A model generated the notes under the pieces. The model was not told the DNA's origin. It saw only the letters and a list, made by a program, of their open reading frames with translations, and did no database searches. This document shows, in pieces, positions 7,317 through 26,948 of a DNA stretch of 32,000 bases. Both the position numbers and the translations under genes were made by a program. Source of the stretch: Vulcanisaeta distributa DSM 14429 (GTDB lineage: Archaea; Thermoproteota; Thermoprotei; Thermoproteales; Thermocladiaceae); contig NC_014537.1 in assembly GCF_000148385.1 (NCBI RefSeq), forward strand, positions 810,001 to 842,000. The letters are read 5' to 3'. The first letter of the stretch is position 1. Every line of letters starts with the position of its first letter.

Positions 7317-7640
7317 CTAAAAGATCCTAATGGCATTCTTAAGGAACCACGCGTACGGCGGCTTACCCTTATCCCTGGCATTAACAACCTTAATATCAAG
7401 TAGGTGAACTACATCGCCGAGCCTATCCTCAACCTCCTCGAGGACCTTGACCTTAACCTCCAGTGGGTCACCATCACTGATTACCAGGAGGATATCCACA
7501 TCACTCGAGCCCGTGATCCTACCCGTGATTACGGAACCAAAGACATAACACTCAACCCCATACCTCCTGAGTATTGGTAAAACGGCGTTGACCAACGACC
7601 TCCAATCCCTAAGGAGCTTAATCCTCCTCACAGGCTCCAT
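7317..7640 (-). CDS. Minimal nucleotidyltransferase (MNT), antitoxin-like partner of the upstream HEPN gene
   Basis: The sequence VFGSVITGRITGSSDVDILLV carries the GS...DxD pol-beta NTase motif. The product is 107 aa. The gene overlaps the upstream HEPN gene by 13 nt. Confidence 0.8.
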   Translation of the reverse strand: MEPVRRIKLLRDWRSLVNAVLPILRRYGVECYVFGSVITGRITGSSDVDILLVISDGDPLEVKVKVLEEVEDRLGDVVHLLDIKVVNARDKGKPPYAWFLKNAIRIF

Positions 7641-8056
7641 AACCTCCTCACCAATTCAATTATGGACTCGGCAGTCCTCAAGGCAATCTCAGCCCTATCC
7701 CTATCGACACTAAGCATTCCGTACTGACCAAGACTCCTTGAATCCTCCAGTATTATTAATTCTCTACGATTATTACTCACGAATGCCCTAACCTCCTCGC
7801 CAGCATTACCCCCCAACTGATTAGCCACTAGACCCAGTAATGACCTAATGTTGTGGGTCCTTGGTGGTTCAATCCCAAGTTTAATGAGTAACGCCTTGAT
7901 TGATAATTGAGCAGCTATCTCGGCATTCACAGCTGCGGCATTGTAAAAACTCCTCTCGAAGGATACCCAGGCAACCACCATGTACTCCTCAGCCCTCCTC
8001 ATGAAGTCCTCAGCGGCGTCGAGGCTCATAGAATTAATCAAGGCATTAATCCCCAT
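7628..8056 (-). CDS. HEPN domain protein
   Basis: The product is a 142-aa helical protein with FERSFYNAAAVNAEIAAQLSIKALL...PPRTHNIRSLL, the HEPN-type R/H-containing motif. It sits in the canonical operon with an MNT gene. Confidence 0.75.
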   Translation of the reverse strand: MGINALINSMSLDAAEDFMRRAEEYMVVAWVSFERSFYNAAAVNAEIAAQLSIKALLIKLGIEPPRTHNIRSLLGLVANQLGGNAGEEVRAFVSNNRRELIILEDSRSLGQYGMLSVDRDRAEIALRTAESIIELVRRLWSL

Positions 8057-11926: not shown

Positions 11927-11948
11927 CCCAGCCGTGCAGTGGAGTGCG

Positions 11949-14900
11949 ATGACCGGGTCAAAAACCAATTGGACTAAACTAATAATACCAGTAGTAACAC
12001 TAATAGTAGTAATAGGAGTAGTTGCTGGGCTGGGACACCCAGCCCTGGCACAGGTAACGTATGGACCCTACGGACCAGTATCAGTACCGGTACCGCCAAA
12101 GACGTACTCCTGGACGCTGTACTGGAACCTAACAGACGCAAGACTAACAAGTACATACACAACAACGAACCCAGTCTATCAATACCTAATTGATTATATG
12201 GTTCCCTGGTACTTCACAGCCGGTAAGTCCTTCAGCATATACATAGCCAATGCAAGTGACGTCTACTATTGGACAAGTAGTGGTTGGCAGCTTGGCTCAC
12301 CAATTGAAATGACGGCGACAGCCACGGCAAACTCAACGGGCGGTGTTACCTGGACCGTAAGCACAACACTAACCGGCGGAATACAACCAAACCAGGTCTA
12401 CGCCAACTGGACAATAGTAATAGTCCTAAACGGCTACGGAGGAGCCAACTGGCTGGTCTTCAACGTAACATCAATATTCATGGACCTGGCAGACCTAATG
12501 GGCAACCTAACAACAGTAAGCACCGGCAGCTACATACCAGTATCACCATCAATAGCCCAGAGCCTAGTACCATATGAATATACCGAGGCCACTTATTACG
12601 GAGTCACCACCCAGGACTACCCAGCACCAATACCTGGAACTACCTCCACTTCGCAGTACGCAATTGAATACCCACTCTTTAGGCCAGTCAATGGCTCTGA
12701 GACGACGCCGAGTGACCTATACGTTGTTTTACCGGACCTCTACTTCTTCTTCCTATACGTTGGCGCAGCCACCGACACAACATCAATATACCCATTACCA
12801 CCATCACCACAGCTGGAGGCCTCGGTGACCCTGGGCACTGGCGTTACGGTATTCGGACCAACCACGTACAACAGCACGGTATCAGCAGCATCACAGAGCA
12901 TTTATAGCGCCGCTTACACGGGCTTTGGTCCAATATACTACGTAACCAATGAATTTGGCGGCCTTAACTCAGCGGACCACAACTACCCAAGCATTACCGC
13001 CCAGCCAATTACAATAACCGTTAGCTACGTATACCCAAGCGGTCAGTCAGTAACGCTATTCAATTACACAACAGCCACTGCAAATAATGAAACGACGCCA
13101 GAATCCTTCAACGTTGCCGTGGCTTACAACTGGACTGTAGGCTCAATAGCCTTAACGGCAATAATCAACGGAACCACAGATCATGAAGACCCGGCGCTAC
13201 TCGTCGGCATACCTGTTGTGGAGTTTTACCTTGGTAATGTCACTGATCTAAAGGGCAATCTAATAATTGGCAATGCCACGTACATACCCAACCCAATACT
13301 TGCCGAGAAGCTCTACGTTAAGTGGTTACTATCAACAACACCAACCGCCACTGTGGTAAGTGAGAACTATCTACGCTACTACGAAACAACACCAGCCCTA
13401 CTACCAGTCGGTTACTTCAGCGGCACCGGTCCTGGAGCACCGACCTTAACAACCACCGGATTCCCAACGCCAGAGCTCTACATATTCTATGAGAACCAGC
13501 CTGTGTTCACGGCAACACTATCCGTGAGTGGAGTAACCAGCGTCACGATAAATAACATAACGGTAGCATTAATGCCGGTCTTCATAAACATAACCCAGTT
13601 TGCGGCAGGTACTAACGCAACCCAGCAGCTGCCTCTTAGCCCCAACCAAGTGCCTTACATAACCGCCTACTACATGTTCTCCTCTCAGTCACCAATAATA
13701 CAGCAATCACCACCAAGTGGTGCAGAGTCAGGAATGCTGTACTATGAGGAGCAGGTGTGGACTAACGAGACCACGTACGGAACCTACTACCCGGCCACAA
13801 TAGCCCAGTTCCCGCCGTTTGAGGAGTCATCAATAGCCGGTATACTAGTAACGCCTGAGGTCAATTGGTTACCAGCACCACCGCTCACCGCATCAATAAC
13901 TGCAAGGAGTAGTAATGTTGGTTTAACAGCAAGTAACTACACGACGGGTGCCCAGTACTACTACTACAGCTTCTGGCTTACATACAATGGGATGACGGTT
14001 GGCTACGGAGTTTATGAGGTTGGTTACAACGTCACAGGCTCCCCAGGGATCTTCAATGAACAATACAAGTTCACGACACCCGAGGTACCAATATTCCAAC
14101 CAGTCTATGGCAGTAATGCAACGCTGGCGCAGTTCTATGGAAGTGCCGGTGAACTAGCGGTCACAACACCAACTGGTGTAAATCCAAGTGCAGGTACCAT
14201 AGTGTTTGCCAACGTCACGGTGGAGAGGGCCTTCATAGCCGCCACGTACACGGTCTATAACGTGCAGTTCCTCAACCTATGCAATGAGACGATAACCTCC
14301 GGCACGGTTTACGTCAGTGAAATGACACCAAGCGGTGCATCAATAACACTAACACCGGTTACACTGAGTTCATCGGCCTACATAATGAAGATAACATCAC
14401 CAATCGGCCTAAAGATATCCTCGGTGTCTGGCGTACCGTACATAGTGGCCATGTCACCAACATTCAACTTCACGCTGAATTACTATGGCTACGTAATGCC
14501 AAGCGTTAGCTACACCACGAGGCAGCCTGAGTACAACTATGTGCTAACGCCCGGCATCATCAATGTGGTTTACTTCCCATTGATTGACATAAACATACAG
14601 GTACTGAGCCAAACAACGCCGCAGTACCCACTGTGGGGCTTCGCGGTGAGCGTCTACAACTACAACGGGACCTTCGAGATGTGGCATGCAATAACCAACT
14701 CGAGTGGTTTCGTGTATGTGATGAACGTGCCACTCAACGCCAGTTACATACAGCCGCAGGGCAAGGCGTATGTGATGCTTAAGGTTAGGACGATAAGCCC
14801 AGCCACAGACAGCGCCTACCCATATGCCCAGGTCTCATATGAGTACGGGCAGACCTATAGCCAGTACGCAAGCGATTTGAACATACCAAGTGGGTACTAC

Positions 14901-17900
14901 GCCTATACACTTGGTACTAGGGGTCCGTTTGATGAGGACTTGGTCATATACTACGAGCCACTGTCAGTGCCCGTGACGGCCACGTGCGGACAGGTATTCA
15001 ACGTGACCGTGCCCGTCGAGACCCTGAGGGTATACGTGACTGACCTGAAGGGCAACGTGTTGAGTAGCCAGCCCGTCTACCCATGCGCCACGCCGAGCTA
15101 CTGCCCAAGCTTCTACTACAACGTGACGTTGGTGATCGCCGACCAGTACAGCCCGTATGACTTGGCGAGCCAGTGGGCAACAACAACGCCCGCCTTCACA
15201 TTCTACTACAACCTAACCGACTTCAGGGTTGTTGGGCAGACATGGATGCAGCCCATCTACGAGAGCCTAGAGGAGAAGTTTGAGGCGTTAATGAGCGCCG
15301 CCCAGTCTGAGTACCAGAGTGGTTTAATAAGCCTACAGCAGTACGCGATGTGGTACACGGGCAACTACAGCTACTACATACTAGCCGCCACACTGGCTAA
15401 CTACAGCACTGCGTCGCCATACGCCGTATTCAGCTTCCCATCAATAGTGCCTCACGAGGGCACCATATTCGTGAGGCTATTCATGCCGGGCCAGGTATTC
15501 CCAATGAAGGTCTACTACCTAGGCCAGGAGGTATTCAACCAGTTAGTCCCGGTGCCACAGCCCAATGAGATAGCCGTGGTAAAGCCAAACGGGCAGGTGC
15601 AGTACGTAACGAACTACACGGTCTATGAGGGCGGCCAGGCAGTATCAGTACCGCCGGGTAGCGTAGTCATTGAGACCAGCGTATACCCAGTCACCTTCAA
15701 CATAACCAGCAAGAGCGGGCTATACCCAGTGGGCAACACCTACCTAGGCCTGACATTCACTGACGTGCTCTACAGGGAGTACGTAATGCCAGGAACATCA
15801 CTAGGCACATCGGTAGCCCAGCAGTACATAAGCAACATACTATACCCATTCAGCGCCGCGATTGAACCTAATTCACTAGGTTATTCCTCAGGAATACTAA
15901 CGCCGAATGATATCTATGTGATAATGAACAACGGCACCTACGCAATAGTTGAGACTTATGGCACGACAACCGTTGATTACAACCCAAGGGCGGTTGCTGG
16001 CTATGAGCCCGTCAATAATGTCTACTCAATGGCTGGCTACGTACTGCCAAACCTAATGGGCTTCTTCGTCAACTCCAGCTCACCAACAATAAGCCTAACG
16101 CCACTGTACATGACTAGTATCTACCCGAACGTATTCAGTACAACGCCGTCTACCGTGGTCTTCAACCTAACGATGGGCATACCCACATACTCCACGGTAC
16201 TTGGCACAACAGCCACTGCCTACCCGAACGACACATTCCTATACGCACCAAGCGCCTCCTACAGTGAGTATAGGTTGTTGATTAACGAGTCATTACTAGC
16301 GCCAACCCAGGTCCTGCTCAATGGAACATCAGTACAGGCTATGCAGCTAAGTGGCATTAGCCCAACGACGTATGCAGTGGAGGTTTCACAGCAGTACTAT
16401 TCGGTGCTGAACTTCACGTACTCAATAACGCCCAACATAGCCAGCTACAGGCTGTGGGAGGCCTACATAAACGCCACTGGAATGACCTCAATAACCAACG
16501 CCACGATAGGCATATACGCAGCCAACGCCACCGGCTGGTACTTCGTCTACAGAGTTAATGAGATCTCAACGTTCCAGGAGGCGATGACCAGGACAATACC
16601 GCTATACCTAACACTGAATGTGTCTGCCATAGAGAGTAAGGTGGAGAATGTGCAGTACGTCGCAGTGGTGCTCTACATCTACGGCAGCGGCTCACTGTAC
16701 ATACTACCGCCAGCCGCAGCCACGGACCACGTGCACGTGCAGTACCCAGTACTGAGCACTGGATTCGGCGGTACAATAGGTTACAATACCGAGAACCTGT
16801 ACACCAACTCGACCGGCACGGGCACAATGAGCATAACGTTCTCATACCCAGTTCCCAATAATGAGTGGTACCCGTACTTCGGAAGCCCACTGACAGTCGT
16901 AATACCAGTACCAAGCAGTGGTGAGGCGGTGTTTGACATACCATGGTGGGCACCAACGACTGGCGCCTACGGTACGAGGATTGCGAGGTTCTGGGTGATG
17001 GGTACAACAAGCACGCAGAACATTGGCTATGGAAGCATAACCACCGTCTATACGCCAAGCCAGTACACGCCAACAGCCCCATCACCACTACCTGAGCTGG
17101 CAATAAGCAGCTACGTGCTGCTGAACTACATAACGCCTGAGCAGGGAGCATCAACGGTGTACACTGGCGAGATACCGCCTGGCACAGTATCAAGCAGCGG
17201 CTCACTGTACATGACCGCGATTGGCGCCGGCACAGGCGGTACATCAGCCCCAATGCTGATGTACGACACACTATTCCCAGAGAACCTATGGAATGTGACT
17301 CTGAGCACTATGCCGGCCAATGGCGTGTATAACATTAGGACGACTGCCCTGGAGAGCGTTGACATATACAACAACGCCTCGTTCCCGATATTTGTGACAG
17401 GCTTCACATACTCATCAGCAGGCAGCAACTACCCACTGAGTGCGCCAACCACTGAGGTTGTCCCAGGAACACTTGCTGAGATACCTGCTAAGTACATCTA
17501 CGGCAGCAGCTACGAGTTCACATCAACGTGGTGCGACCTAGGCAACTACACGCCATACATACCGGATCTATCAGCAACATTCTACTACACACCGCCCAAC
17601 GCCACCTTCTACCTAGCCAACGGCACTGCACTGCCATTTACCGTGTACCCGAACGGCACAGTCGTCATTGGAACACACACCTACAGCATAAGCCAACTGG
17701 AGGCTCCACTGCAGTCGCCAAGCATTAACTTCACAACGCTATACGCAGGCAGTGAATTAGACAGTAGTAACACGACGGTGACGATACCGCAGTTTGGTGA
17801 GAGTGCCAGGAGTAGTGTGTATTATGAGTCGTACTACAACTACACAAGTTCAATAGTTGGTGCTCAGGCAATACTGTATGACCACGAGGCATACCCAGTC

Positions 17901-19496
17901 AATGGCGCCTGGGACATTGCCGGTTACGTAGGTGTTCCATCGGCACCGGAGTTACTGCCGAGTGCAAGTAATGATACTGAGGCTAAGATGGTATTCACAT
18001 ACCCAACAATACCACTGGCCGTCATTGAGGACTGGGATGGTAGGCCACTACCCAACCAGATGGTCGTTGAGTACGGAGTAGGCACGAAGCCGGTGCTCTG
18101 CGCAGGCACGGCGCCAATAGCCATCGACTTCAGCGGTACCAACGGCCAGCTACTACAGCCATTACCAGTGGGTAACAGGACTGTCGTGTACTGGTACGAC
18201 AGCTGCCTACTCTACACAATAACCGGCGGCGCCTATCCATACATCAATATCTACGACACCAACATAGCCACTGACGTGAGTACGCTGGGTAATGCCTTCA
18301 CGGCAACGTCAGTTGAGACCCACGTGGTGCCGGCCACAATCTACCTAAAGAGCGCCACGGGCACTGGAATACCTGGCGCCTTGGTTGTTGTGTTTGACCA
18401 GCCAACAATGGGCAATGAGCTCCTAGCCTTCAATGTAACCGGCACTGACGGTTCAATAACACCAGTTGACTACAGGATCTACCCACCAGCCACGAGCCAG
18501 CTACCACCAACCAACTACTACGTGGTTGCCTACTATGCGGCCAACGGAACACCGCTGACATGGCAGGAGATACAACAGGCAATAAGCAGTCACTCAACGC
18601 TGTACCTAGTGCCAGTGTTTGAGAACACCTTCAGTATACAGAGGACTGTAACTGCGACTGAGGCCATTGAGTCATTCACACTATCCAACATACTAACAAC
18701 GGCCAACATAGTAGTCGTGCTGTCCAGCTTCGGCCCAGCACCAGGCGTGACTCTAAGCTACAGCGTGTCTGAGCCTGAGTGCCCAGTGACGATAACAGCC
18801 ATATCACCAGCATCAACAATTGTTGGTTACACATACAGCGTGACGCCACTAATGCCATCACCAAGCGTATGTACGCCAACTACCGCAGTGACTGGCACAG
18901 GAACGACGAACGCTCAGGGCCAGATAACCACGGCCACGTTCGTGACGCCTGTAGCCCCATTCGCGGCTGAGGTGACGATAACGGTGCAGTCATGGAAGGG
19001 CATACCACTGGGCTACACCTACACCTACTACGTAACAAGCAGTAACGCAACGACACCAATACAGGTGTCAGTACCGGCTGTTGAATTAACTGTGACGCCA
19101 GTAAGCGCCAGTGGCGCTCCACTAACAACGCAGGCTACCGTAAACGTGACATGCAGTGGCGTACCAATTGCCAGCGGTGTCGGCCAGCAGACAGTTGTCG
19201 TACCAATACCAAGCAGTGGTTCAATAACATGTACAATAACTGGCTACAGCTACGGAAAGAGTGCAAGCACGACTGTGACGCTGACGAGTAGTCAGGCTGG
19301 GCAGACGATAACGAAGACGCTGACGATACCGGTGAGCGGCTACTACATACCGGGCGTGGGCTTTGTACCAGTGAGCACCTTCATACTGCTGGCTGTTGTG
19401 ATAATAATCATAATAATACTAATAGTGATATTGCTGATTGAGTACAGCAACTGGAGGAGGAGGAGACTAGCTGGTCTGCTGGGTCCGCCGAAGTAA
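11949..19496 (+). CDS. Giant (~2,515 aa) cell-surface glycoprotein candidate (S-layer or tethered envelope protein)
   Basis: The ORF is uninterrupted over 7.5 kb. The N-terminal signal is MTGSKTNWTKLIIPVVTLIVVIGVVAGLGHPALA|QV. The C-terminal TM anchor FILLAVVIIIIIILIVILLI is followed by NWRRRR. I counted about 60 N-x-S/T sequons by hand. The composition is rich in T, S, Y, V and P and beta-rich, with motifs such as VTDLKGN and DWDGRPLPNQMVV that recur in beta-sandwich domains. The track ORF starts at GTG 11934; ATG 11949 is the more likely start. Confidence 0.8.
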   Translation: MTGSKTNWTKLIIPVVTLIVVIGVVAGLGHPALAQVTYGPYGPVSVPVPPKTYSWTLYWNLTDARLTSTYTTTNPVYQYLIDYMVPWYFTAGKSFSIYIANASDVYYWTSSGWQLGSPIEMTATATANSTGGVTWTVSTTLTGGIQPNQVYANWTIVIVLNGYGGANWLVFNVTSIFMDLADLMGNLTTVSTGSYIPVSPSIAQSLVPYEYTEATYYGVTTQDYPAPIPGTTSTSQYAIEYPLFRPVNGSETTPSDLYVVLPDLYFFFLYVGAATDTTSIYPLPPSPQLEASVTLGTGVTVFGPTTYNSTVSAASQSIYSAAYTGFGPIYYVTNEFGGLNSADHNYPSITAQPITITVSYVYPSGQSVTLFNYTTATANNETTPESFNVAVAYNWTVGSIALTAIINGTTDHEDPALLVGIPVVEFYLGNVTDLKGNLIIGNATYIPNPILAEKLYVKWLLSTTPTATVVSENYLRYYETTPALLPVGYFSGTGPGAPTLTTTGFPTPELYIFYENQPVFTATLSVSGVTSVTINNITVALMPVFINITQFAAGTNATQQLPLSPNQVPYITAYYMFSSQSPIIQQSPPSGAESGMLYYEEQVWTNETTYGTYYPATIAQFPPFEESSIAGILVTPEVNWLPAPPLTASITARSSNVGLTASNYTTGAQYYYYSFWLTYNGMTVGYGVYEVGYNVTGSPGIFNEQYKFTTPEVPIFQPVYGSNATLAQFYGSAGELAVTTPTGVNPSAGTIVFANVTVERAFIAATYTVYNVQFLNLCNETITSGTVYVSEMTPSGASITLTPVTLSSSAYIMKITSPIGLKISSVSGVPYIVAMSPTFNFTLNYYGYVMPSVSYTTRQPEYNYVLTPGIINVVYFPLIDINIQVLSQTTPQYPLWGFAVSVYNYNGTFEMWHAITNSSGFVYVMNVPLNASYIQPQGKAYVMLKVRTISPATDSAYPYAQVSYEYGQTYSQYASDLNIPSGYYAYTLGTRGPFDEDLVIYYEPLSVPVTATCGQVFNVTVPVETLRVYVTDLKGNVLSSQPVYPCATPSYCPSFYYNVTLVIADQYSPYDLASQWATTTPAFTFYYNLTDFRVVGQTWMQPIYESLEEKFEALMSAAQSEYQSGLISLQQYAMWYTGNYSYYILAATLANYSTASPYAVFSFPSIVPHEGTIFVRLFMPGQVFPMKVYYLGQEVFNQLVPVPQPNEIAVVKPNGQVQYVTNYTVYEGGQAVSVPPGSVVIETSVYPVTFNITSKSGLYPVGNTYLGLTFTDVLYREYVMPGTSLGTSVAQQYISNILYPFSAAIEPNSLGYSSGILTPNDIYVIMNNGTYAIVETYGTTTVDYNPRAVAGYEPVNNVYSMAGYVLPNLMGFFVNSSSPTISLTPLYMTSIYPNVFSTTPSTVVFNLTMGIPTYSTVLGTTATAYPNDTFLYAPSASYSEYRLLINESLLAPTQVLLNGTSVQAMQLSGISPTTYAVEVSQQYYSVLNFTYSITPNIASYRLWEAYINATGMTSITNATIGIYAANATGWYFVYRVNEISTFQEAMTRTIPLYLTLNVSAIESKVENVQYVAVVLYIYGSGSLYILPPAAATDHVHVQYPVLSTGFGGTIGYNTENLYTNSTGTGTMSITFSYPVPNNEWYPYFGSPLTVVIPVPSSGEAVFDIPWWAPTTGAYGTRIARFWVMGTTSTQNIGYGSITTVYTPSQYTPTAPSPLPELAISSYVLLNYITPEQGASTVYTGEIPPGTVSSSGSLYMTAIGAGTGGTSAPMLMYDTLFPENLWNVTLSTMPANGVYNIRTTALESVDIYNNASFPIFVTGFTYSSAGSNYPLSAPTTEVVPGTLAEIPAKYIYGSSYEFTSTWCDLGNYTPYIPDLSATFYYTPPNATFYLANGTALPFTVYPNGTVVIGTHTYSISQLEAPLQSPSINFTTLYAGSELDSSNTTVTIPQFGESARSSVYYESYYNYTSSIVGAQAILYDHEAYPVNGAWDIAGYVGVPSAPELLPSASNDTEAKMVFTYPTIPLAVIEDWDGRPLPNQMVVEYGVGTKPVLCAGTAPIAIDFSGTNGQLLQPLPVGNRTVVYWYDSCLLYTITGGAYPYINIYDTNIATDVSTLGNAFTATSVETHVVPATIYLKSATGTGIPGALVVVFDQPTMGNELLAFNVTGTDGSITPVDYRIYPPATSQLPPTNYYVVAYYAANGTPLTWQEIQQAISSHSTLYLVPVFENTFSIQRTVTATEAIESFTLSNILTTANIVVVLSSFGPAPGVTLSYSVSEPECPVTITAISPASTIVGYTYSVTPLMPSPSVCTPTTAVTGTGTTNAQGQITTATFVTPVAPFAAEVTITVQSWKGIPLGYTYTYYVTSSNATTPIQVSVPAVELTVTPVSASGAPLTTQATVNVTCSGVPIASGVGQQTVVVPIPSSGSITCTITGYSYGKSASTTVTLTSSQAGQTITKTLTIPVSGYYIPGVGFVPVSTFILLAVVIIIIIILIVILLIEYSNWRRRRLAGLLGPPK

Positions 19497-19572: not shown

Positions 19573-19615
19573 CAGGACCAACAACCTTATATTTAACTCC
19601 ATGAATAAATAATCA

Positions 19616-21037
19616 GTGAGTAAGCAAGCAGATAAAATCAATAGGGATGAGTTGCTTAGGCTTCTTAGGGAGGATGAGGAGTTTAGGCTAGCCGTAATGG
19701 GTCTACTCGGTATTGTTGACATTCAATCCTCACTAAGGCAATTAATCAATGCCGTTAATAGACTTGCTGAGGCTCAGTCGAAGTCTGTCAATGCAATGCA
19801 GGGCATTGCCGAGGGCGAGGCAAGGATTACGGAGATGCTCGGTAAGGTCACGGACATGCTGGCTAAGATCAATGAGATGATTATGGACCTGGCGGAGACC
19901 CTGAGCAGGACCATCGACATGGTGGAGAGGCTTGCCAAGGGGCAGGAGGAGCTGGGCAACGCCATTAGGCAGTTGGCCGATGTGCAGAGGGTCACCTGGG
20001 ATGCGGTCAGGCAGTTGATTGATGGTGAGGGGAAGATACTCGACCTACTCAGGCAGTCCCTGGAGTCCCAGGGAAGGCTCTGGCAGGAGGTTAAGAACCT
20101 GCAGGAGCAGGTTAAGGCGCTGCAGGAGGGCCAAAACAACGTGTTGGTTGAGATAAGGAAGTTGACTGAGAACCAGGCAGGCCTACTGCAGGAAATCAAG
20201 AGGCTGGCTGACGAGCAGGAGAGGCTTTGGAGGGAGGTCAATGCGCTTAAGGAGGTGGAGAGTAAGTTGCTTGAGGAGAATAATAGGTTGTGGCAGGAGG
20301 TCAGGGCATTGAGGGAGGCGCAGAATAAACTCCTTGAGGAGAATAATAAGATTTGGCAAGAGATTAAGGCTCTGCGTGAGGGTTATGAGGCATTAAGAAC
20401 CGACGTAAATAAGCTGTGGGAGGAAAACAACAAGATATGGCAGGAGATAAGGAAAATAAACGAGAACATAGAGAAGATATGGCAGGAAATTAGTGCACTG
20501 AGGGAGGTGCAGAACAAACTTCTCGAGGAGAATAATAGGATTTGGCAGGAAATTAAGGCCTTGAGGGAGGAGGAGGCTAGGCTGCGTGAGGGTCAGGACA
20601 GGCTGTGGGAGAGGTATGATAGGCTTGATAGGAAGTTGTCGGCCATCGGCGCCAGGTGGGGCGTGCTTAGTGAGGATGCGTTTAGGAGGGCTGTCGAGGA
20701 GCTGCTCAGTGGTGCTGGTTATAGGGTTGAGAGGTGGAGTTACAATGATTCTGAGGGCTACGTCTTCGGCTACCCAAGCGTCGTGGACCTAAACGTGGTG
20801 GTTAAGGACGACAAATCCTTTGCCGTGGAGATCAAGTCCTCAGTGAGTAGGGGTGATGTCGTGGTGTTTAAACGCATTATTGAACTCTATGAGAGGGTCA
20901 CTGGCAGGAGGCTCGACGCCAGGTACCTAGTGACCTACTTTATTGGGGAGAGGGATGAGAAGGCAGTGACCGAACTCGCCAACTCCCTAGGAATAAGGAT
21001 TGTCTATCCCGAGGAACTAACGAGACGGCAGGCATGA
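19616..21037 (+). CDS. Long coiled-coil protein with a C-terminal PD-(D/E)XK nuclease-like domain (DUF1626/PDDEXK_10-like by recollection)
   Basis: About 340 aa form heptad-rich coiled coil with LLEENNRIWQEIKALRE-type repeats. The C-terminus reads GARWGVLSEDAFRRAVEELL...GYVFGYPSVVDLNVVVKDDKSFAVEIKSS..., with D...E-x-K spacing. GTG 19616 is preceded by TTATATTTAA at 19587-19596. Confidence 0.65.
   Translation: MSKQADKINRDELLRLLREDEEFRLAVMGLLGIVDIQSSLRQLINAVNRLAEAQSKSVNAMQGIAEGEARITEMLGKVTDMLAKINEMIMDLAETLSRTIDMVERLAKGQEELGNAIRQLADVQRVTWDAVRQLIDGEGKILDLLRQSLESQGRLWQEVKNLQEQVKALQEGQNNVLVEIRKLTENQAGLLQEIKRLADEQERLWREVNALKEVESKLLEENNRLWQEVRALREAQNKLLEENNKIWQEIKALREGYEALRTDVNKLWEENNKIWQEIRKINENIEKIWQEISALREVQNKLLEENNRIWQEIKALREEEARLREGQDRLWERYDRLDRKLSAIGARWGVLSEDAFRRAVEELLSGAGYRVERWSYNDSEGYVFGYPSVVDLNVVVKDDKSFAVEIKSSVSRGDVVVFKRIIELYERVTGRRLDARYLVTYFIGERDEKAVTELANSLGIRIVYPEELTRRQA
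20225..20602 (+). repeat. Six degenerate 63-bp (21-aa) in-frame repeat units, each starting (L/I)W, inside the coiled-coil gene
   Basis: The units are LWREVNALKEVESKLLEENNR, LWQEVRALREAQNKLLEENNK, IWQEIKALREGYEALRTDVNK, LWEENNKIWQEIRKINENIEK, IWQEISALREVQNKLLEENNR and IWQEIKALREEEARLREGQDR. I checked the codon phase at 20225 and 20603. Confidence 0.7.
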
Positions 21038-21822
21038 TGGTCATGAGGCTGAGGAGAATCCTCGACCTAGTGAGTAGGTACTTCGATGAATTCAGGGCTG
21101 CGCGCAGGGGTGGTGGGAGTATCTACGCCATTGAGAGGCTAGCCCAGTTAACAATACAGGCCCTGCTGGATCTAGGCGCGATGCTAGCCGTCGAGCTCAA
21201 GGATGAAAAGCCCGAGACGTATAGAGGCATCGCTGATTACATATCCAATAAGCTGGGCCTGGGCGAGGACCTGAGGAGGTTCCTTAGGGGGCTCGCCGGT
21301 TTTAGGAATGTGCTGGTTCATGGGTATGCCGAGATCAACAGGGAACTTGAGGAGGAGGCCTTTAGGGATATGGAGGAGAGGCTACCCTTAGTAATCGAGG
21401 GGCTCAGGAACTTCATAAGCAGCATTGGAGACCCAGGGCAAGTTAACATTGAGGAGCTGAGGGTTAGGTTAAGGCCCGTCTTCGAGAAACACGGCGTGAG
21501 GTTCGCCCTACTCTTCGGTTCGAGGGCTAGGGCAGGGGTTGGTAGGGACTACGACTTCGCCATCTCCGCAGACCTCAGGAGCGCCATAGAGCTCGGCGAG
21601 TTGATAGTGGATATTGCCGAGGCCCTAGGCGTGAATGAAGACTTAATAGACGTGGTCCACCTGGAGAGCGCCGACGCAGGGATCCTATACTCCGTGATTA
21701 ACGATGGTGTGGTGATCTACGGCGATGAGGAGGAGGCCATGAACTACCTATGGAGGAGGTACCTAGAACTCCTGGACATCAATGAGTACCTAAACCACCT
21801 GGAAAGGCACATGAGCCCCTAA
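21034..21822 (+). CDS. Fused HEPN (DUF86/HepT-like) and minimal nucleotidyltransferase (MntA-like) protein
   Basis: The N-terminal half carries FRNVLVHGY (R91-x4-H96-x-Y98; codons at 21304, 21319 and 21325). The C-terminal half carries LLFGSRARAGVGRDYDFAIS (GS...DxD). The start ATG overlaps the upstream stop in an ATGA junction at 21034-21037. Confidence 0.7.
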   Translation: MMVMRLRRILDLVSRYFDEFRAARRGGGSIYAIERLAQLTIQALLDLGAMLAVELKDEKPETYRGIADYISNKLGLGEDLRRFLRGLAGFRNVLVHGYAEINRELEEEAFRDMEERLPLVIEGLRNFISSIGDPGQVNIEELRVRLRPVFEKHGVRFALLFGSRARAGVGRDYDFAISADLRSAIELGELIVDIAEALGVNEDLIDVVHLESADAGILYSVINDGVVIYGDEEEAMNYLWRRYLELLDINEYLNHLERHMSP

Positions 21823-21923: not shown

Positions 21924-21964
21924 TTATTTGTGTTTTGGTTTGTGTTTAGAAATTTCTAAACGTG
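21924..21964 (+). repeat. Palindrome-repeat copy 1: TTATTTGTGTTTTGGTTTGTG-TTTAGAAATTTCTAAA-CGTG
   Basis: The perfect 16-bp palindrome lies at 21945-21960. By manual alignment this copy is 38/41 identical to copy 2. Confidence 0.9.
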
Positions 21965-22014: not shown

Positions 22015-23019
22015 TTACGTAGATTCCTCCAGTGCCCTTCTCACGGCTTCCCTGTGTATTGGTGTTTGCCATGCTACGTATTTTCCGATCCCGAGTTCTT
22101 CATCCTTTTCTGGTGGTGGTGTGTCCACCCAGTAGTCTGGTTTTCTCTTGGGTAGGAAGTATGTGATGAGGTTCCTCTCGATTAACTCATTGATTAATTC
22201 CCCGGGTGCGTTAAACCACAGGTAATCCGGATCACCAACGGCCTCCCTAAGGTGACCCGCCCACCTCCTAACGAAGTCCGGTGAAAGCCCCTTCTCCCTG
22301 ATGAGGCTGTTTATGACCTCGTTCACGTCCCAATTCCTCATGTAAAGCCTCTCGAGTATTCTTGGGTTTCCACCCGTCAATTTCCAGACCTCCTCGAATG
22401 GCGGCTTATCGCCGGGCAACTGATCATACAACTGCCTGAACCCATCCCTAGGCATATTCCACATAACCCTTAGGTTAGCCCACGTGTGTCTTCCTATTTC
22501 CCTCCTCGACACGCCCTCGCTCGTGGCTGCTATCGTGACTATCCTCTCATAATGCTCGGGTGGGTATTCGATTAGGTTTAGCAAAGCCTTCACGTATAAT
22601 GCGGACTCCTTAACGCCAATCACCTGGAAGGCGTCGTCAACGATGACCGCGATCTTACCCCTGGTCGCCTTAATCACGTCATAAACCACATTATAGGCTA
22701 TCCAGGCAATCCTCGCTAGGGCATTCTGAGCAATGGCTTCCTTAATTAGTCTCAGGAACTCATCCTTAAGGCTGTTGATGCTTATCTCGGCGAGGGCAAG
22801 CCTATTGACGGGGTTAACATAAACAACCTCAAAACCAAACTCCCTAAGCAACTCAATGGACTGAAGCAACCAGGCGGTCTTACCACAACCCTCAGGCCCA
22901 TAAATGACCCTCGGAAGCCCGGTGCCCCTCCCGACCCAATCCTCAATGAGTTTAAGGGCCAAATCCCTATCAACAAAATCAACCCGCAAACCCGCAAAAC
23001 CAAGCCTAACCCTCCTCAC
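22015..23019 (-). CDS. Archaeal ATPase (AAA/STAND-like, Arch_ATPase family paralog)
   Basis: The N-terminal motif is VDFVDRDLALKLIEDW. Walker A is YGPEGCGKTAWL and Walker B is IAVIVDDAF. The start is GTG 23019, with TTG 22989 as an alternative. The TATA-like TATTTATA (23051-58, minus strand) lies upstream. Confidence 0.75.
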   Translation of the reverse strand: MRRVRLGFAGLRVDFVDRDLALKLIEDWVGRGTGLPRVIYGPEGCGKTAWLLQSIELLREFGFEVVYVNPVNRLALAEISINSLKDEFLRLIKEAIAQNALARIAWIAYNVVYDVIKATRGKIAVIVDDAFQVIGVKESALYVKALLNLIEYPPEHYERIVTIAATSEGVSRREIGRHTWANLRVMWNMPRDGFRQLYDQLPGDKPPFEEVWKLTGGNPRILERLYMRNWDVNEVINSLIREKGLSPDFVRRWAGHLREAVGDPDYLWFNAPGELINELIERNLITYFLPKRKPDYWVDTPPPEKDEELGIGKYVAWQTPIHREAVRRALEEST

Positions 23020-23143: not shown

Positions 23144-23184
23144 TTATTTTGTTTTTGGTTTGTGTTTAGAAATTTCTAAACGTG
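23144..23184 (+). repeat. Palindrome-repeat copy 2 (same orientation as copy 1)
   Basis: The sequence is TTATTTTGTTTTTGGTTTGTG-TTTAGAAATTTCTAAA-CGTG, with the palindrome at 23165-23180. A perfect 8-bp-stem hairpin (caccacgg-ctaagt-ccgtggtg, 23096-23117) lies about 45 nt to its left. Confidence 0.9.
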
Positions 23185-23221: not shown

Positions 23222-24328
23222 TCATTGCATCTGCCCTATGTTTTCTATGAATTTGCTTGTTGCCTCTTTGATTAGGTCGTCCCACGTGAGCACCCTCTTG
23301 CCCATTAGTGCCTTTGTTATGTGGTCTATGCTTGCTGCCTCTTCGAAGGATTTGTTTAGTGCGTTCACTAATTCGTTGATTAGCCTGTTGAGGTTGTCTA
23401 TTGGTGTTGAGGATGCCCTCGGTATTATGAACATGCCCAGCCTCTTGATTCTCCCTGACTTCGTCATTGCCGCCAGGTTTTTCATCACGTACTCACTGGA
23501 TAATTGAATGCCCCTGGCCCTATCCATGAATCTCAACTCGGCGCGCCTGGACAGGAGGCCAAGTAAATGCTGCAATGCCCCACTCAGCACTGCCCTGATA
23601 CCCGCATTACCGCCCAGCCTAATGACCTCCCTCCTAATACCCGGGTGCCTGTAAAGGTCGTTGGCCAACTGCCTGTATAATCTTGAGTAGTAAATGGGTA
23701 GTGAGTGCGTGATGTTTCTGAAGTCCTCACCATTACTAATCCTAACCCAGTCAACGAACCTCGCGAGAGGCCTCGTTACCGGGAAGCCCAGTGCCGTCCT
23801 TACGTTTACGCCATAGTTCATATACGCCATGAAGTTATCGACCAAGCCCCTTAGGAGTTCCTCAGGCTTATTCACAAGCCTTATCAATGACATGAAGCTC
23901 TCAATCCTATACCCATCAACGTAGCCGAACACCGAGAGCGTCACGTTAGGCCCACCATCGAAGCCCAGGGCCTCAGATAAATCACGGCTTGGATAGACCG
24001 TCAGGAAAACACTGACATCAGCATTGCTTAACTCACCACCGATGACAGCCCTAAAACCACGGGTGATCCTAACCGCCCCACCCTCGCGAACCTTATCGAT
24101 TACGCCCTTAACATCGACATTATCGAGGCTCGTCGTTAATAAATTGATATTCACCTCCCCCACCTTATTACCTGGCTCGTGGTCCCACACATATGAGTCA
24201 ACACGTTCAAACCTACCCAATCTACCGATGGCGTTAATCATCGCTATTCCGAGGTAGAGCGATACCCTGAACATGCCCATCCTAGTCAAGCCATACCTAG
24301 GGCTCAGTACCTTAATACCAATGGTCAT
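23222..24328 (-). CDS. Hypothetical protein (368 aa) with no recognisable motif
   Basis: This is a long ORF. Its start overlaps the stop of the upstream 207-aa ORF by 4 nt, giving an operon structure. Confidence 0.55.
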   Translation of the reverse strand: MTIGIKVLSPRYGLTRMGMFRVSLYLGIAMINAIGRLGRFERVDSYVWDHEPGNKVGEVNINLLTTSLDNVDVKGVIDKVREGGAVRITRGFRAVIGGELSNADVSVFLTVYPSRDLSEALGFDGGPNVTLSVFGYVDGYRIESFMSLIRLVNKPEELLRGLVDNFMAYMNYGVNVRTALGFPVTRPLARFVDWVRISNGEDFRNITHSLPIYYSRLYRQLANDLYRHPGIRREVIRLGGNAGIRAVLSGALQHLLGLLSRRAELRFMDRARGIQLSSEYVMKNLAAMTKSGRIKRLGMFIIPRASSTPIDNLNRLINELVNALNKSFEEAASIDHITKALMGKRVLTWDDLIKEATSKFIENIGQMQ

Positions 24329-24948
24329 ACCATCACCACCCCAAGCACCGCATTATCGATCCTAACGGCATCATCCTTATCATCCCTCTTCACCGTAAAC
24401 ACCACGACTGACCCACTCAATCCCAATGTCTGGAACTCCCTGATAAACCTTATGCCGTGAAGCCTTAACCTCAACTTACGAATGAGCTTACTCCTGAAGT
24501 TATTATAGTCCTGCCCATGCAATACCACGATTAAATACTTAGGATTAATGTCCTTCTTAAGCACCCTACTTATCAACGATATACTACCGCGCAATTTATC
24601 CTCCAAATCCTCAACGGCAGAGGCACCGGTTGATATGCTCAATTTAAAATCGACCAAGACATCCCCACGCATGGTATCCAGGTAAACATCACAGTACCTC
24701 TCACCACGTACGTGACTTCCCACCGCCAAATCATCGAGACAATAAACACCCTTAACCCCAACACCCCTTATGAAATTCACAAACGTATTACTATTGGCAA
24801 TGCTTAAATAATCACTGGAATGCTCAGGATCATGCCTCCCGCATTTAATCACCTCATTAATAATATCACTATTCACAATAAGTAGTACCATCAAGACTTT
24901 TAAAGTACTACGGAGATAGGCACGTGGGCTATATTGTTCATGGGCCAC
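24325..24948 (-). CDS. Hypothetical protein with a possible PD-(D/E)XK-like core; start uncertain (GTG 24948, ATG 24891 or GTG 24876)
   Basis: The segment ERYCDVYLDTMRGDVLVDFKLS resembles the hhhD...(D/E)-h-K strand pair of restriction-endonuclease-fold proteins, but only weakly. The GTG 24948 start overlaps repeat copy 3. The TATA-like CTTTAAAAG (minus strand, ~24896-24906) lies 24 nt before GTG 24876. Confidence 0.5.
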   Translation of the reverse strand: MAHEQYSPRAYLRSTLKVLMVLLIVNSDIINEVIKCGRHDPEHSSDYLSIANSNTFVNFIRGVGVKGVYCLDDLAVGSHVRGERYCDVYLDTMRGDVLVDFKLSISTGASAVEDLEDKLRGSISLISRVLKKDINPKYLIVVLHGQDYNNFRSKLIRKLRLRLHGIRFIREFQTLGLSGSVVVFTVKRDDKDDAVRIDNAVLGVVMV

Positions 24949-24980
24949 ATTTAGAAATTTCTAAACGCAACCAAAAGAAA
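24946..24980 (-). repeat. Palindrome-repeat copy 3 (inverted relative to copies 1 and 2)
   Basis: The plus strand reads CACA-TTTAGAAATTTCTAAA-CGCAACCAAAAGAAA, with the palindrome at 24950-24965. Its reverse complement, TTTCTTTTGGTTGCG-palindrome-TGTG, aligns with the TTTTGGTTTGTG-palindrome-CGTG of copies 1 and 2. Confidence 0.85.
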
Positions 24981-25062: not shown

Positions 25063-25446
25063 TCATTGGCTTTGTATTATCCTGCTCATGTACTCTATCC
25101 ATGGTGTTAACGCTGCCGTTGTTTCTGGGTATTTCTGTGTGGCCGTTGTTATTAGTTCGGCTGTTGCCTTCATTATCTCCTCCAGGGCGTTTATGACGTC
25201 CTCCCTGCCCAGTCTCTCCTCGGTTATTGCCTTGGTTATCTCCTCCATGTACTTCAACTCCCTATTAACGTCAATTGCGCCCCTAACCACTATCTTGTTA
25301 GTCCTAGTCCCATACTTATAATGCAGCGGACCCAGGTAGTGCTGCGTACCATCCATGTGAACAGCCACGTAGTATGTGTTCGACCTCTTACCAACCCTGT
25401 AAACACCCTTAATCGGCGCACCGCACCTGGGGCACCTGGCCTGCAT
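25063..25446 (-). CDS. Zinc-ribbon protein of unknown function
   Basis: The N-terminus is MQARCPRCGAPIKGVYRVGKRSNTYYVAVHMDGTQHYLGP, with one CxxC visible and a beta-hairpin-like YYVAVH...HYLGP segment. The C-terminal half is helical and acidic. TTTATAAA (25472-25479) lies 26 nt upstream of the ATG. Confidence 0.6.
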   Translation of the reverse strand: MQARCPRCGAPIKGVYRVGKRSNTYYVAVHMDGTQHYLGPLHYKYGTRTNKIVVRGAIDVNRELKYMEEITKAITEERLGREDVINALEEIMKATAELITTATQKYPETTAALTPWIEYMSRIIQSQ

Positions 25447-25762: not shown

Positions 25763-26314
25763 CTAAGATCCAAGTTCTCTCTTTAGTTCCGTCAATGCGT
25801 TCTCGAGCTCATCGGTCCATTTTACCCTCGCCTTTAACTCCTCAATGCGCCTAATCAACTCCCTCATGAGTAGTTTCACGTCTACCGCGGCCTCCTCCCT
25901 ATTCCTGTACTTGCTCATTACCAAATCTGGGTCCGGCCCATTGTACTGATAATCATGTAGTTCTAGGGCCACCGTGGTCCATGGTAATACTCCGTGGTGG
26001 CCAACCTCCTCAAGCATTTGTGATAGTGCCTTCATCCTCGTGGTTGGTACCCTCGGCACAGCCTTATTTACTAGCCAATTCCTCTCCTCATCACTCCTTA
26101 CAACCCTTAGGAGATTATTAAGTTCGAGCCTCAATAACGCAGCCAGTAAAGCCCTCCATGCCTGGAAAGCCTTACCAGCCGCATTCCTGACAAGACCCTT
26201 GCTCAGGAACTCAAGGGCAAGCCTAGCCTCGACCAAGGCCTCCAAAAGCCTAGCACCCACGTAATCCTCAGTGGTTGGCTTGGGCAAGGGCCTCTCAAGG
26301 ACTTCCGCATCCAC
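25763..26314 (-). CDS. PaREP1-like helical protein
   Basis: The sequences ARLALEFLSKGLVRNAAGKAFQAWRALLAALL and ...ALELHDYQYNG resemble the two conserved helices (ASEKxWGA... and ...LHxNFYH) that I recall for the archaeal PaREP1/PaREP8 family. Confidence 0.5.
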   Translation of the reverse strand: MDAEVLERPLPKPTTEDYVGARLLEALVEARLALEFLSKGLVRNAAGKAFQAWRALLAALLRLELNNLLRVVRSDEERNWLVNKAVPRVPTTRMKALSQMLEEVGHHGVLPWTTVALELHDYQYNGPDPDLVMSKYRNREEAAVDVKLLMRELIRRIEELKARVKWTDELENALTELKRELGS

Positions 26315-26405: not shown

Positions 26406-26948
26406 TCAGGCTCGTCCCTCATTAATTACTACCTTCTGGGCCTCCTGAACCATCCTCTTTATGTCCGGCAATCTCCTCCTAACCAACTCACTGTCCAGCT
26501 TTGCCTCATGAAACCCCCAGACGTGTAGGTAATTCGCGGCATCCCAAGCCCCCTCAAACCACTTACCCAACCTATCGGCTATCGACGCCACAGCCCTAGC
26601 CAAGTCAATGACTATCCACCTACCCCTACCCTCAACCCTTGCCAACACATCCCTCAAGTCGTAATGCATTGCTAAGGCCTTAACAACCTCCTCAGCGGCC
26701 TTGTAGAGCTTCTCGCTGGCCTGCACGGGGTCCTTATCGATTAAATCCCTACCCTCGTTCAGGTACTTAACCGCCAACTCAAGCCTAGCCCTAACAGCCA
26801 CCTCAGGGTCCAGGTTCAACACCTTAATCAACGTTGTTATTAACAACTCCTCAACATTGAGACCCCTCCTCACAGCCTCCTCATAAAGCGTCCTCGGCAC
26901 ATCAACAACCACAGTACTCATATGAAGCCAACCCAAACCACCAGACAC
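26406..26948 (-). CDS. PaREP1 family protein (probable true start at ATG 26921)
   Basis: The sequence ARLELAVKYLNEGRDLIDKDPVQASEKLYKAAEEVVKALA...GRGRW...AANYLHVWGFHEAKL matches the recalled PaREP1 pattern closely. Confidence 0.6.
   Translation of the reverse strand: MSGGLGWLHMSTVVVDVPRTLYEEAVRRGLNVEELLITTLIKVLNLDPEVAVRARLELAVKYLNEGRDLIDKDPVQASEKLYKAAEEVVKALAMHYDLRDVLARVEGRGRWIVIDLARAVASIADRLGKWFEGAWDAANYLHVWGFHEAKLDSELVRRRLPDIKRMVQEAQKVVINEGRA

Follow-up and report, generated by a model that had tools for sequence, protein, structure and literature searches.

A single-chain, HEPN-first HepT–MntA protein encoded beside a long-stalked coiled-coil PD-(D/E)XK gene in Vulcanisaeta distributa

We analyzed two closely spaced plus-strand genes in a 32,000-nucleotide (nt) stretch of Vulcanisaeta distributa DSM 14429 DNA (contig NC_014537.1; hereafter the window, whose numbering is used throughout). 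Gene 1 (19616..21037; 473 amino acids (aa), GTG start) encodes a coiled-coil-stalk PD-(D/E)XK protein, and gene 2 (21034..21822; 262 aa, or 259 aa if translation starts at 21043) encodes a single chain in which a HepT-type HEPN domain is followed by a linker and an MntA-type nucleotidyltransferase (NTase) domain. Our preferred reading, to which we assign a probability of about 0.6, is that gene 2 is an autonomous single-chain ribonuclease (RNase) switch resembling type VII toxin–antitoxin systems, and that gene 1 is a functionally separable neighbour from a known family, probably co-transcribed with it. An earlier, sequence-only reading of the window had singled out the same two genes, and the list of open reading frames (ORFs) agrees with the positions it gave for both.

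The identity of gene 2 is consistent across databases, domain profiles and folds. GenBank lists the identical product as ADN50252.1 ('protein of unknown function DUF86'), and the 259-aa RefSeq model (WP_245522566.1) carries the name 'HepT-like ribonuclease domain-containing protein'. Pfam places HepT-like (PF01934) at aa 15–110 (E-value 3.1e-15) and Polbeta NTase (PF18765) at aa 147–233 (3.6e-11), within a layout of HEPN at aa 1–130 and NTase at aa 139–262. The sequence-only reading had made the same DUF86/HepT and MntA assignments and had observed that the order within this single ORF, with HEPN N-terminal, reverses that of canonical mntA-hepT operons; both observations hold. The HEPN domain carries R91-N-V-L-V-H96-G-Y98 (21304..21327, plus strand), which combines an Rx4-6H RNase motif with an acceptor-type tyrosine two residues past the catalytic histidine (H-G-Y), the predicted acceptor of adenosine monophosphate (AMP). 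The NTase domain has the catalytic motif G162-S163-x8-D172-x-D174 (21517..21555, plus strand), whose DxD reads D172-Y-D174 when counted on the translation, and a third carboxylate, D206 (21649-21651, plus strand), in the alignment. Between the two domains, AlphaFold2 and the alignment delimit a linker, IGDPGQVN, at aa 131–138 (21424..21447, plus strand).

These residues are conserved across the family. In the 56-sequence alignment of gene 2 homologues R91, G162, D172, D174 and D206 never vary, H96 and Y98 are kept in 55 sequences each and E34-R35 in 54, while residue 163 is serine in 47 and glycine in nine. The linker residues D133 and P134 are at least 90% conserved. The motifs listed by the sequence-only reading are thus invariant or nearly so, and the inactive HEPN or NTase it had named as a point to check by profile is not what the alignment shows: catalytic and acceptor residues alike are conserved. 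Between V. distributa and V. souniana the ratio of non-synonymous to synonymous substitution rates (dN/dS) of gene 2 is 0.15.

AlphaFold2 models gene 2 as two confident domains with a mean predicted local distance difference test score (pLDDT) of 87.5. The HEPN model comprises five helices, of which helix 78–96 ends with the RNase motif, and the NTase model is an alpha/beta fold. As pLDDT falls below 50 at aa 133–136 and the predicted template modelling score (pTM) is 0.51, the relative orientation of the domains is undefined. In Foldseek searches the NTase domain matched the MNT chains 7ae9_G and 7ae2_B at ~2e-7, with MntA of 6m6u, 7bxo and 5yep also matching, and the HEPN domain matched the toxin chains of 7ae9, 7ae8 and 7ae6 at ~5e-4, with a target-normalised TM score of ~0.7. 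The solved MNT and AMPylated-HEPN chains matched by the model include 8xeo, and a sequence search of the PDB agrees with Foldseek, more weakly. Among PADLOC defence models, gene 2 gave weak PDC-S09 matches (~1e-4).

Both folds, the catalytic motifs and the acceptor tyrosine link gene 2 to canonical two-gene type VII HepT/MntA systems, which provide its best PDB matches by sequence and by fold; examples are SO_3165/3166 of S. oneidensis, HEPN/MNT of Aphanizomenon flos-aquae (PDB 7ae2/7ae8/7ae9) and a Legionella system. In the canonical arrangement two genes are present, with mntA upstream of hepT, whereas gene 2 is a single ORF with HEPN first and a stoichiometry fixed at 1:1. The sequence-only reading had described the NTase of characterised systems as a separate protein, a statement now outdated by FhepTA (SO_1440) of the Shewanella oneidensis prophage CP4So, a 276-aa MNT-HEPN single chain (Yao et al., NAR 2026, PMC13000451). 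FhepTA adds three AMPs to its own tyrosine beside RxxxxH, and it does so intramolecularly, as complementation of Y240F with D41E/D43E gave no modification in trans; its 8-residue linker is essential, and silencing additionally requires two cysteines and the blocking of HEPN dimerisation by MNT (PMC13000451). In three species, the tyrosine beside RxxxxH is oligo-AMPylated by MntA. Earlier, Anantharaman et al. 2013 (PMC3710099) had described DUF86 HEPN domains as 'occasionally fused to MNT' and predicted that the conserved tyrosine is nucleotidylated. Since FhepTA was characterised in 2026 and DUF86-MNT fusions were noted in 2013, the fusion concept is not new: the one uncharacterised feature is the succession from HEPN to MNT.

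Gene 2 resembles FhepTA in being one chain with an MntA-type NTase (GS...DxD), a HepT-type HEPN domain (RxxxxH plus tyrosine) and a linker of about eight residues. It differs in that its HEPN domain is N-terminal, whereas FhepTA begins with MNT and ends with HEPN. It also differs in residence: FhepTA lies on a prophage, while gene 2 is chromosomal and syntenic in a thermoacidophilic archaeon. The 262-aa sequence contains no cysteine at all, in contrast to the two HEPN cysteines of FhepTA with their redox control, and a disulfide- or redox-based control of the FhepTA type is therefore ruled out for gene 2.

By analogy with these relatives, we propose that, with adenosine triphosphate (ATP) available, the NTase of gene 2 (G162-S163, D172, D174, D206) would place one or more AMPs on Tyr98, and that this modification, two residues past R91x4H96, would keep the RNase silent. 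The RNase would be turned on when modification lapses (ATP depletion), when an AMP-removing enzyme acts or upon loss of the NTase domain; two HEPN domains free of the modification could then pair to form a composite active site, cleave RNA and thereby arrest growth. The short, conserved D-P linker probably sets the geometry for self-modification. That the fusion would allow self-AMPylation had been predicted from the sequence and is an obvious consequence of the architecture; the reaction could be either intramolecular, as in FhepTA, or across the dimer.

Several observations weigh against this reading of gene 2. Its scores against the NCBIfam equivalogs HepT_toxin (52.2; NF047751) and MntA_antitoxin (47.9; NF047752) are both below the cut-off of 60, and the NTase spacing is GS-x8-DxD, two residues shorter than the GS-x10-DxD of characterised MntA and FhepTA. 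The model shows no confident packing between the domains (pTM 0.51), and hence lends no support to the idea that Tyr98 gains access to the NTase site within one chain. FhepTA itself did not become toxic when AMPylation was lost; its main brake is the N-terminal MNT, which blocks HEPN dimerisation (PMC13000451). This brake, whose MNT undergoes degradation from the N-terminal end, does not necessarily apply to the C-terminal MNT of gene 2; because a C-terminal MNT may not block HEPN dimerisation, the regulation of gene 2 could differ from that of FhepTA. Finally, our literature search found no characterisation of a protein with N-terminal HEPN and C-terminal MNT. Whether a C-terminal NTase can hinder HEPN dimerisation is the one real question raised by the reversed order. 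A bolder version would make the HEPN-first switch mechanistically distinct, with dimerisation unblocked and AMPylation in trans within a HEPN homodimer, and would couple it to a long-stalk PD-(D/E)XK protein in Vulcanisaeta and some Desulfurococcaceae as an undescribed archaeal two-gene defence module targeting DNA and RNA; we give this proposal only a slim chance.

A different possibility is that gene 2 is no toxin–antitoxin protein but a 'domesticated' nucleotidyltransferase that modifies another protein, an RNA 3' end or a small molecule. Anantharaman 2013 (PMC3710099) states that a HEPN domain joined to MNT within a larger protein is typically inactive and serves to bind substrate, and gene 2 shares with kanamycin/ANT-type nucleotidyltransferases the pairing of a Pol-beta NTase with a HEPN-fold domain. 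Foldseek also lists ANT(9)/AadA (6sxj, 5lpa), with weak E-values of 3e-3 to 4e-2 and a TM score of ~0.29, and the gene is chromosomal and syntenic in the genus, with no mobile-element signature seen nearby. The kanamycin/ANT-type enzymes, however, have the reverse domain order, NTase then HEPN, and their HEPN domain lacks Rx4H. The family-wide retention of R91/H96, Tyr98 and E34-R35 is the opposite of the 'inactive HEPN' pattern, and the best structural and sequence matches of gene 2 are toxin–antitoxin proteins. We therefore regard a domesticated enzyme as quite unlikely.

The HEPN-first fusion is a real family, found mostly in thermophilic archaea. A search of 5.8 billion proteins recovered 91 clusters of gene 2 homologues, nearly all of which have both Pfam domains and a length of 250–280 aa; the sources are V. 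souniana (90% identity), Acidilobus, Nezhaarchaeales and many hot-spring metagenomes. Scanning species-representative genomes extended the fusion across Thermoproteota and related archaea, with full-length relatives in Desulfurococcales, Acidilobaceae, Pyrodictiaceae, Thermofilaceae, Thermoproteus, Pyrobaculum, Bathyarchaeia, Marsarchaeota, Brockarchaeota and thermophilic Nitrososphaerales. An exhaustive profile search of 1.84 billion representatives returned 56 proteins at an E-value of 1e-30 or better. Among the 148 representatives with the best scores (50% identity), 53 have the order HEPN>NT and 45 the order NT>HEPN. The Rx4HxY motif is kept in 42 of the former and 44 of the latter, and G[SG]..DxD in 46 and 44, respectively; part of the shortfall in the HEPN>NT group is due to fragments. 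Both domain orders are thus established natural architectures.

We considered whether the fusion might be a sequencing or annotation artefact and rejected this, as 86 of the 91 clusters carry both domains in the order HEPN>NT, mostly at full length, and the gene is under purifying selection. Split versions do occur within the genus. In Vulcanisaeta sp. JCM 16159 (locus L023, 4942-6839) gene 1 and the fusion are each broken into several ORFs, and a second V. souniana assembly (P0004, P0059, P0092) contains split versions of the fusion. As gene 1 is broken up in them too, frameshift sequencing errors are the most likely cause of these forms, ahead of pseudogenisation or a natural split form. Archaeal genomes also contain single ORFs in the opposite order, NTase then HepT (L053 269-1123, L063 855-1697, L065 5923-6771, L074 5950-6828), and the contig of the L053 example carries a HEPN-first fusion ~1.4 kb away.

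Turning to gene 1, the sequence-only reading had described it as a coiled coil ending in a restriction-endonuclease-like domain. Pfam bears this out with DUF3782 and PDDEXK_10, and the segment VVDLNVVVKDDKSFAVEIKSS is present within the gene. Its family was described by Hartmann et al. (eLife 2016, PMC4786415) as prokaryotic PD-(D/E)XK endonucleases with N-terminal coiled-coil stalks that are prominent in Crenarchaeota. Like those crenarchaeal proteins (Pfam DUF3782 + PDDEXK_10, formerly DUF1626), gene 1 has an N-terminal head, a coiled-coil stalk, an LGARWG motif and an E...D...ExK core. The conserved head (aa 10–33, RDELLRLLREDEEFRLAVMGLLGI; 19643..19714, plus strand) corresponds to the motif LLKEDEEFRYAVAGLIGL that opens most homologues in the alignment; the consensus LLKEDEEFRxAVAGLIGL reads LLRLLREDEEFRLAVMGLLGI in gene 1. 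The stalk follows at 19718..20635 (plus strand) as a heptad coiled coil of ~300 aa built from amplified 21-aa units (ALRExQNKLLEENNxIWQEI). Self-comparison gives repeat offsets of 21, 28, 63 and 84 aa, and at the DNA level a repeat, D1, recurs at spacings of 63/126 nt alongside 21-nt tandem repeats. Pfam finds many weak matches at aa ~35–340, to coiled-coil models only.

The catalytic end of gene 1 begins with DUF3782 (aa 311–387; 20546..20776, plus strand; 8.9e-24), which comprises the stalk end, the LGARWG motif and the first helix of the catalytic core (E-x2-F-R). The PDDEXK_10 core (aa 388–461; 20777..20998, plus strand; 8.4e-21) follows, with D393 (VVDLN) and E405-I-K407 (VEIKSS). A-x-G-A-R-W-G, E, F and R are invariant columns in the alignments, and the family core reads E...D...E-x-K/T, for which gene 1 has E, D393 and E405-I-K407; in several homologues the lysine of ExK is replaced by threonine. 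AlphaFold2 models the core with a pLDDT of 84, and the best Foldseek matches are all restriction-endonuclease folds (AF1548 1y88, MspJI, EndoMS/NucS, Card1/Can2 and Bax1), though all are weak, with E-values of 2e-3 or worse. Searching with the C-terminal 163 aa retrieved 44 clusters from Pyrobaculum, Vulcanisaeta, Bathyarchaeota and hot springs, all of which combine DUF3782 with PDDEXK_10 and most of which are 200–290 aa long. Typical members have stalks of ~90–130 aa, so that the ~300-aa stalk of gene 1, expanded by amplification of the 21-aa repeat, is two to three times longer; it consists of plain heptads, and the A-T-K-x-[DE] beta-layer motif of the Pyrobaculum homologues is not seen in it. 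The V. souniana orthologue (515 aa, 94.5% identity) differs in length by a single clean 42-aa indel, equal to six heptads, and dN/dS for the C-terminal domain between the two species is ~0.16. Judged by its sequence, gene 1 is an ordinary but unusually long-stalked member of the crenarchaeal coiled-coil PD-(D/E)XK family and a predicted nuclease.

The two genes are tightly linked. A TATA-box-like element read from the sequence, TTATATTTAA (19587..19596, plus strand), lies ~25 nt 5' of the GTG codon of gene 1; it fits archaeal promoter architecture and would yield a leaderless transcript of gene 1 and gene 2. Because this element precedes gene 1 and inspection of the sequence revealed no AT-rich promoter-like stretch directly before gene 2, co-transcription is likely. 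The ATGA overlap on which translational coupling had been proposed is present in the DNA (ATGATGGTCATG at 21034-21045). Coupling of the overlap type is nonetheless uncertain, because most gene 2 homologues begin with MR[LV][KR] and RefSeq starts the protein at 21043, 5 nt past the TGA of gene 1. Under either start the genes are closely joined, by a 4-nt overlap or a 5-nt gap.

This layout invites the interpretation put forward in the sequence-only reading, namely that genes 1 and 2 form one three-activity module (DNase-like, RNase and NTase switch). Such a system would join a DNase-like coiled-coil protein, as sensor or effector, to an NTase-governed RNase; it could serve in defence, for instance, with the nuclease protein activating the HEPN RNase or having it as a backup. 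The close spacing and the missing promoter-like stretch before gene 2 speak for it. So does the conservation of the pair in V. souniana, where both genes show a dN/dS of ~0.15, and its adjacency in Vulcanisaeta sp. JCM 16159, whose copies of the two genes are, however, each broken into several ORFs. With a gap of at most 5 nt or a 4-nt overlap and purifying selection on the pair, these features count against the independence of the two genes that our reading assumes. The same is true of one independent Desulfurococcaceae lineage (L022/L025), in which a DUF3782-PDDEXK_10 gene lies directly downstream of the fusion, 80–90 nt away on the same strand.

Recurrence across genomes points the other way. 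A profile of the gene 1 C-terminal domain was run against 63 loci that carry the fusion (538 kb in total, representing 44 lineages at 80% identity). Apart from the Desulfurococcaceae case, a gene-1-like match lies directly upstream of the fusion in Vulcanisaeta (the window, L001/L002 and L023), 3 kb upstream on the opposite strand in one Desulfurococcales lineage (L003/L012) and, as a weak match, 5 kb away in L057. Direct adjacency is thus confined to two of the 44 lineages, and in four the genes lie within 6 kb of each other, leaving about 40 lineages with no gene-1-like gene within 6 kb on either side. The two adjacent lineages, moreover, have opposite gene orders. Conversely, a HEPN>NT fusion was found in none of 80 metagenome loci with gene-1-like genes (359 kb, searched with HEPN and NTase profiles), which gave only scattered weak MNT or HEPN matches.

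Against a background of roughly one gene-1-like copy per 360 kb (one extra copy was seen in 359 kb), proximity within 6 kb in three to four lineages is ~2–3 times the expectation, a rough and unconvincing excess. For direct adjacency on the same strand, seen in two lineages, equally rough estimates put the chance expectation at about 0.1 and the excess at about tenfold. Both families are multi-copy in thermophilic archaea, and many such genes crowd this region (two of PaREP1, one of ATPase_2 and a second HEPN/MNT pair), which makes adjacency by chance or driven by a genomic island plausible. The adjacency is a weak signal that also fits both families collecting in the same variable regions.

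Individual gene contexts, inspected for seven fusion homologues and one gene-1 homologue, show no common partner either. The fusion homologues have mutually unrelated neighbours: PhoU/MazE with a metallo-beta-lactamase, a 2-oxoacid oxidoreductase, cas6 with ParE, glycosyltransferases, and PALP/TauE. No neighbour family lies within 2.5 kb of the fusion in more than 5 of the 44 lineages, and the family reaching that number is generic ABC ATPases, so that the fusion has no conserved partner. Members of the gene-1 family usually stand alone among unrelated genes, and the inspected homologue, found in four samples, sits between the housekeeping genes DUF134 and adenylosuccinate lyase. The placement of gene 1 beside gene 2 is a lineage-specific arrangement and not a conserved partnership, and gene 1 is almost certainly only a neighbour. 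We accordingly consider a joint three-activity system unlikely.

A shared link to type III CRISPR could in principle explain the adjacency, with the fusion acting as a CRISPR-associated ancillary RNase. One fusion homologue directly follows cas6 (L009, 4046-5753), and in another locus (L005, 1-6753) the fusion comes after cas6 and ~4 kb without called genes, possibly a CRISPR array. In addition, aa 258–440 of gene 1 match the PADLOC model PDLC01085 'C3a181' (5.8e-33; 'Diadenylate cyclase' there), although the paper suspected to be the source of this model says nothing about these domains, and the provenance and meaning of the model and the reason for the match are not established. Yet cas6 occurs in just two of the inspected contexts, no cas gene or CRISPR-like repeat adjoins gene 1 or gene 2 in the window, and neither CARF nor any other cyclic-oligoadenylate-sensing domain is present. 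An ancillary CRISPR role is accordingly very improbable, and the autonomous switch beside a separable neighbour remains our preferred account of the pair.

Other features of the window provide further context. The sequence-only reading had contrasted gene 2 with a conventional split HEPN+MNT pair at 7317-8056. The pair is real (minus strand; HEPN PF05168 from 8056 to 7628, 6.9e-27; MNT from 7640 to 7317; 13-nt overlap) but not conventional, as its HEPN is of the PF05168 and not the DUF86/HepT type and the HEPN gene is 5' of MNT. It is therefore HEPN-first like the gene 2 fusion and departs from the rule of PMC3710099 that MNT is almost always 5'. Directly upstream of gene 1 lies a 2520-aa ORF (11934-19496) without any Pfam match. 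Thr, Ser, Tyr and Asn-x-Ser/Thr sites abound in it; a hydrophobic segment lies at its N-terminus, and at its C-terminus a transmembrane segment precedes RRRR. Its V. souniana counterpart has 2519 aa, and the product is probably a giant glycosylated surface protein.

Downstream of the pair, Pfam identifies on the minus strand an archaeal ATPase_2 gene (22015-23019; 3.4e-69), a small ORF that weakly matches a Pyrobaculum spherical virus ORF131-like domain (25063-25446; 4e-4) and two genes of the HEPN-clan family PaREP1/PaREP8 (25763-26314 and 26406-26948; ~1e-29 to 1e-31), which suggests a variable, paralogue-rich region. PaREP1-HEPN genes have been reported in operons with MNT and DUF1626 restriction-endonuclease genes (Anantharaman 2013, PMC3710099). 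A repeat scan also detected an 18-nt perfect palindrome, GTTTAGAAATTTCTAAAC, in intergenic positions at 21944-21961, 23164-23181 and 24949-24966; three copies within 3 kb, the third with one mismatch, compare with a chance expectation of none. The first two are contained in a 41-nt repeat (21924-21964 and 23144-23184). The copies lie past the convergent ends of gene 2 and ATPase_2, upstream of ATPase_2, and directly upstream of the minus-strand ORF at 24325-24948, and in V. souniana the palindrome is kept at the corresponding sites (L001 6911-6928 and 9214-9231). An operator bound by a dimeric regulator is one possible role, a bidirectional terminator hairpin another.

Among prokaryotic toxin–antitoxin families HepT/MntA is considered the most abundant, and it is greatly expanded in thermophilic archaea, and we know of no member from a thermophilic archaeon that has been studied in vivo. 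In this setting gene 2 is a domain-permuted, cysteine-free, archaeal version of the fused HepT-MntA protein. The advance is otherwise incremental, as the principle of the fusion is published, databases already label the protein HepT-like and the partnership with the nuclease gene is unsupported. The family nevertheless lends itself to structural work, being compact (~250 aa) and of hyperthermophile origin, with a V. distributa protein that lacks cysteines. As a natural HEPN-first fusion it offers a ready comparison with FhepTA on whether self-AMPylation has to be intramolecular or is governed by the geometry of the linker, and it could tell whether the NTase keeps the RNase silent purely through chemistry or blocks its dimerisation as well.

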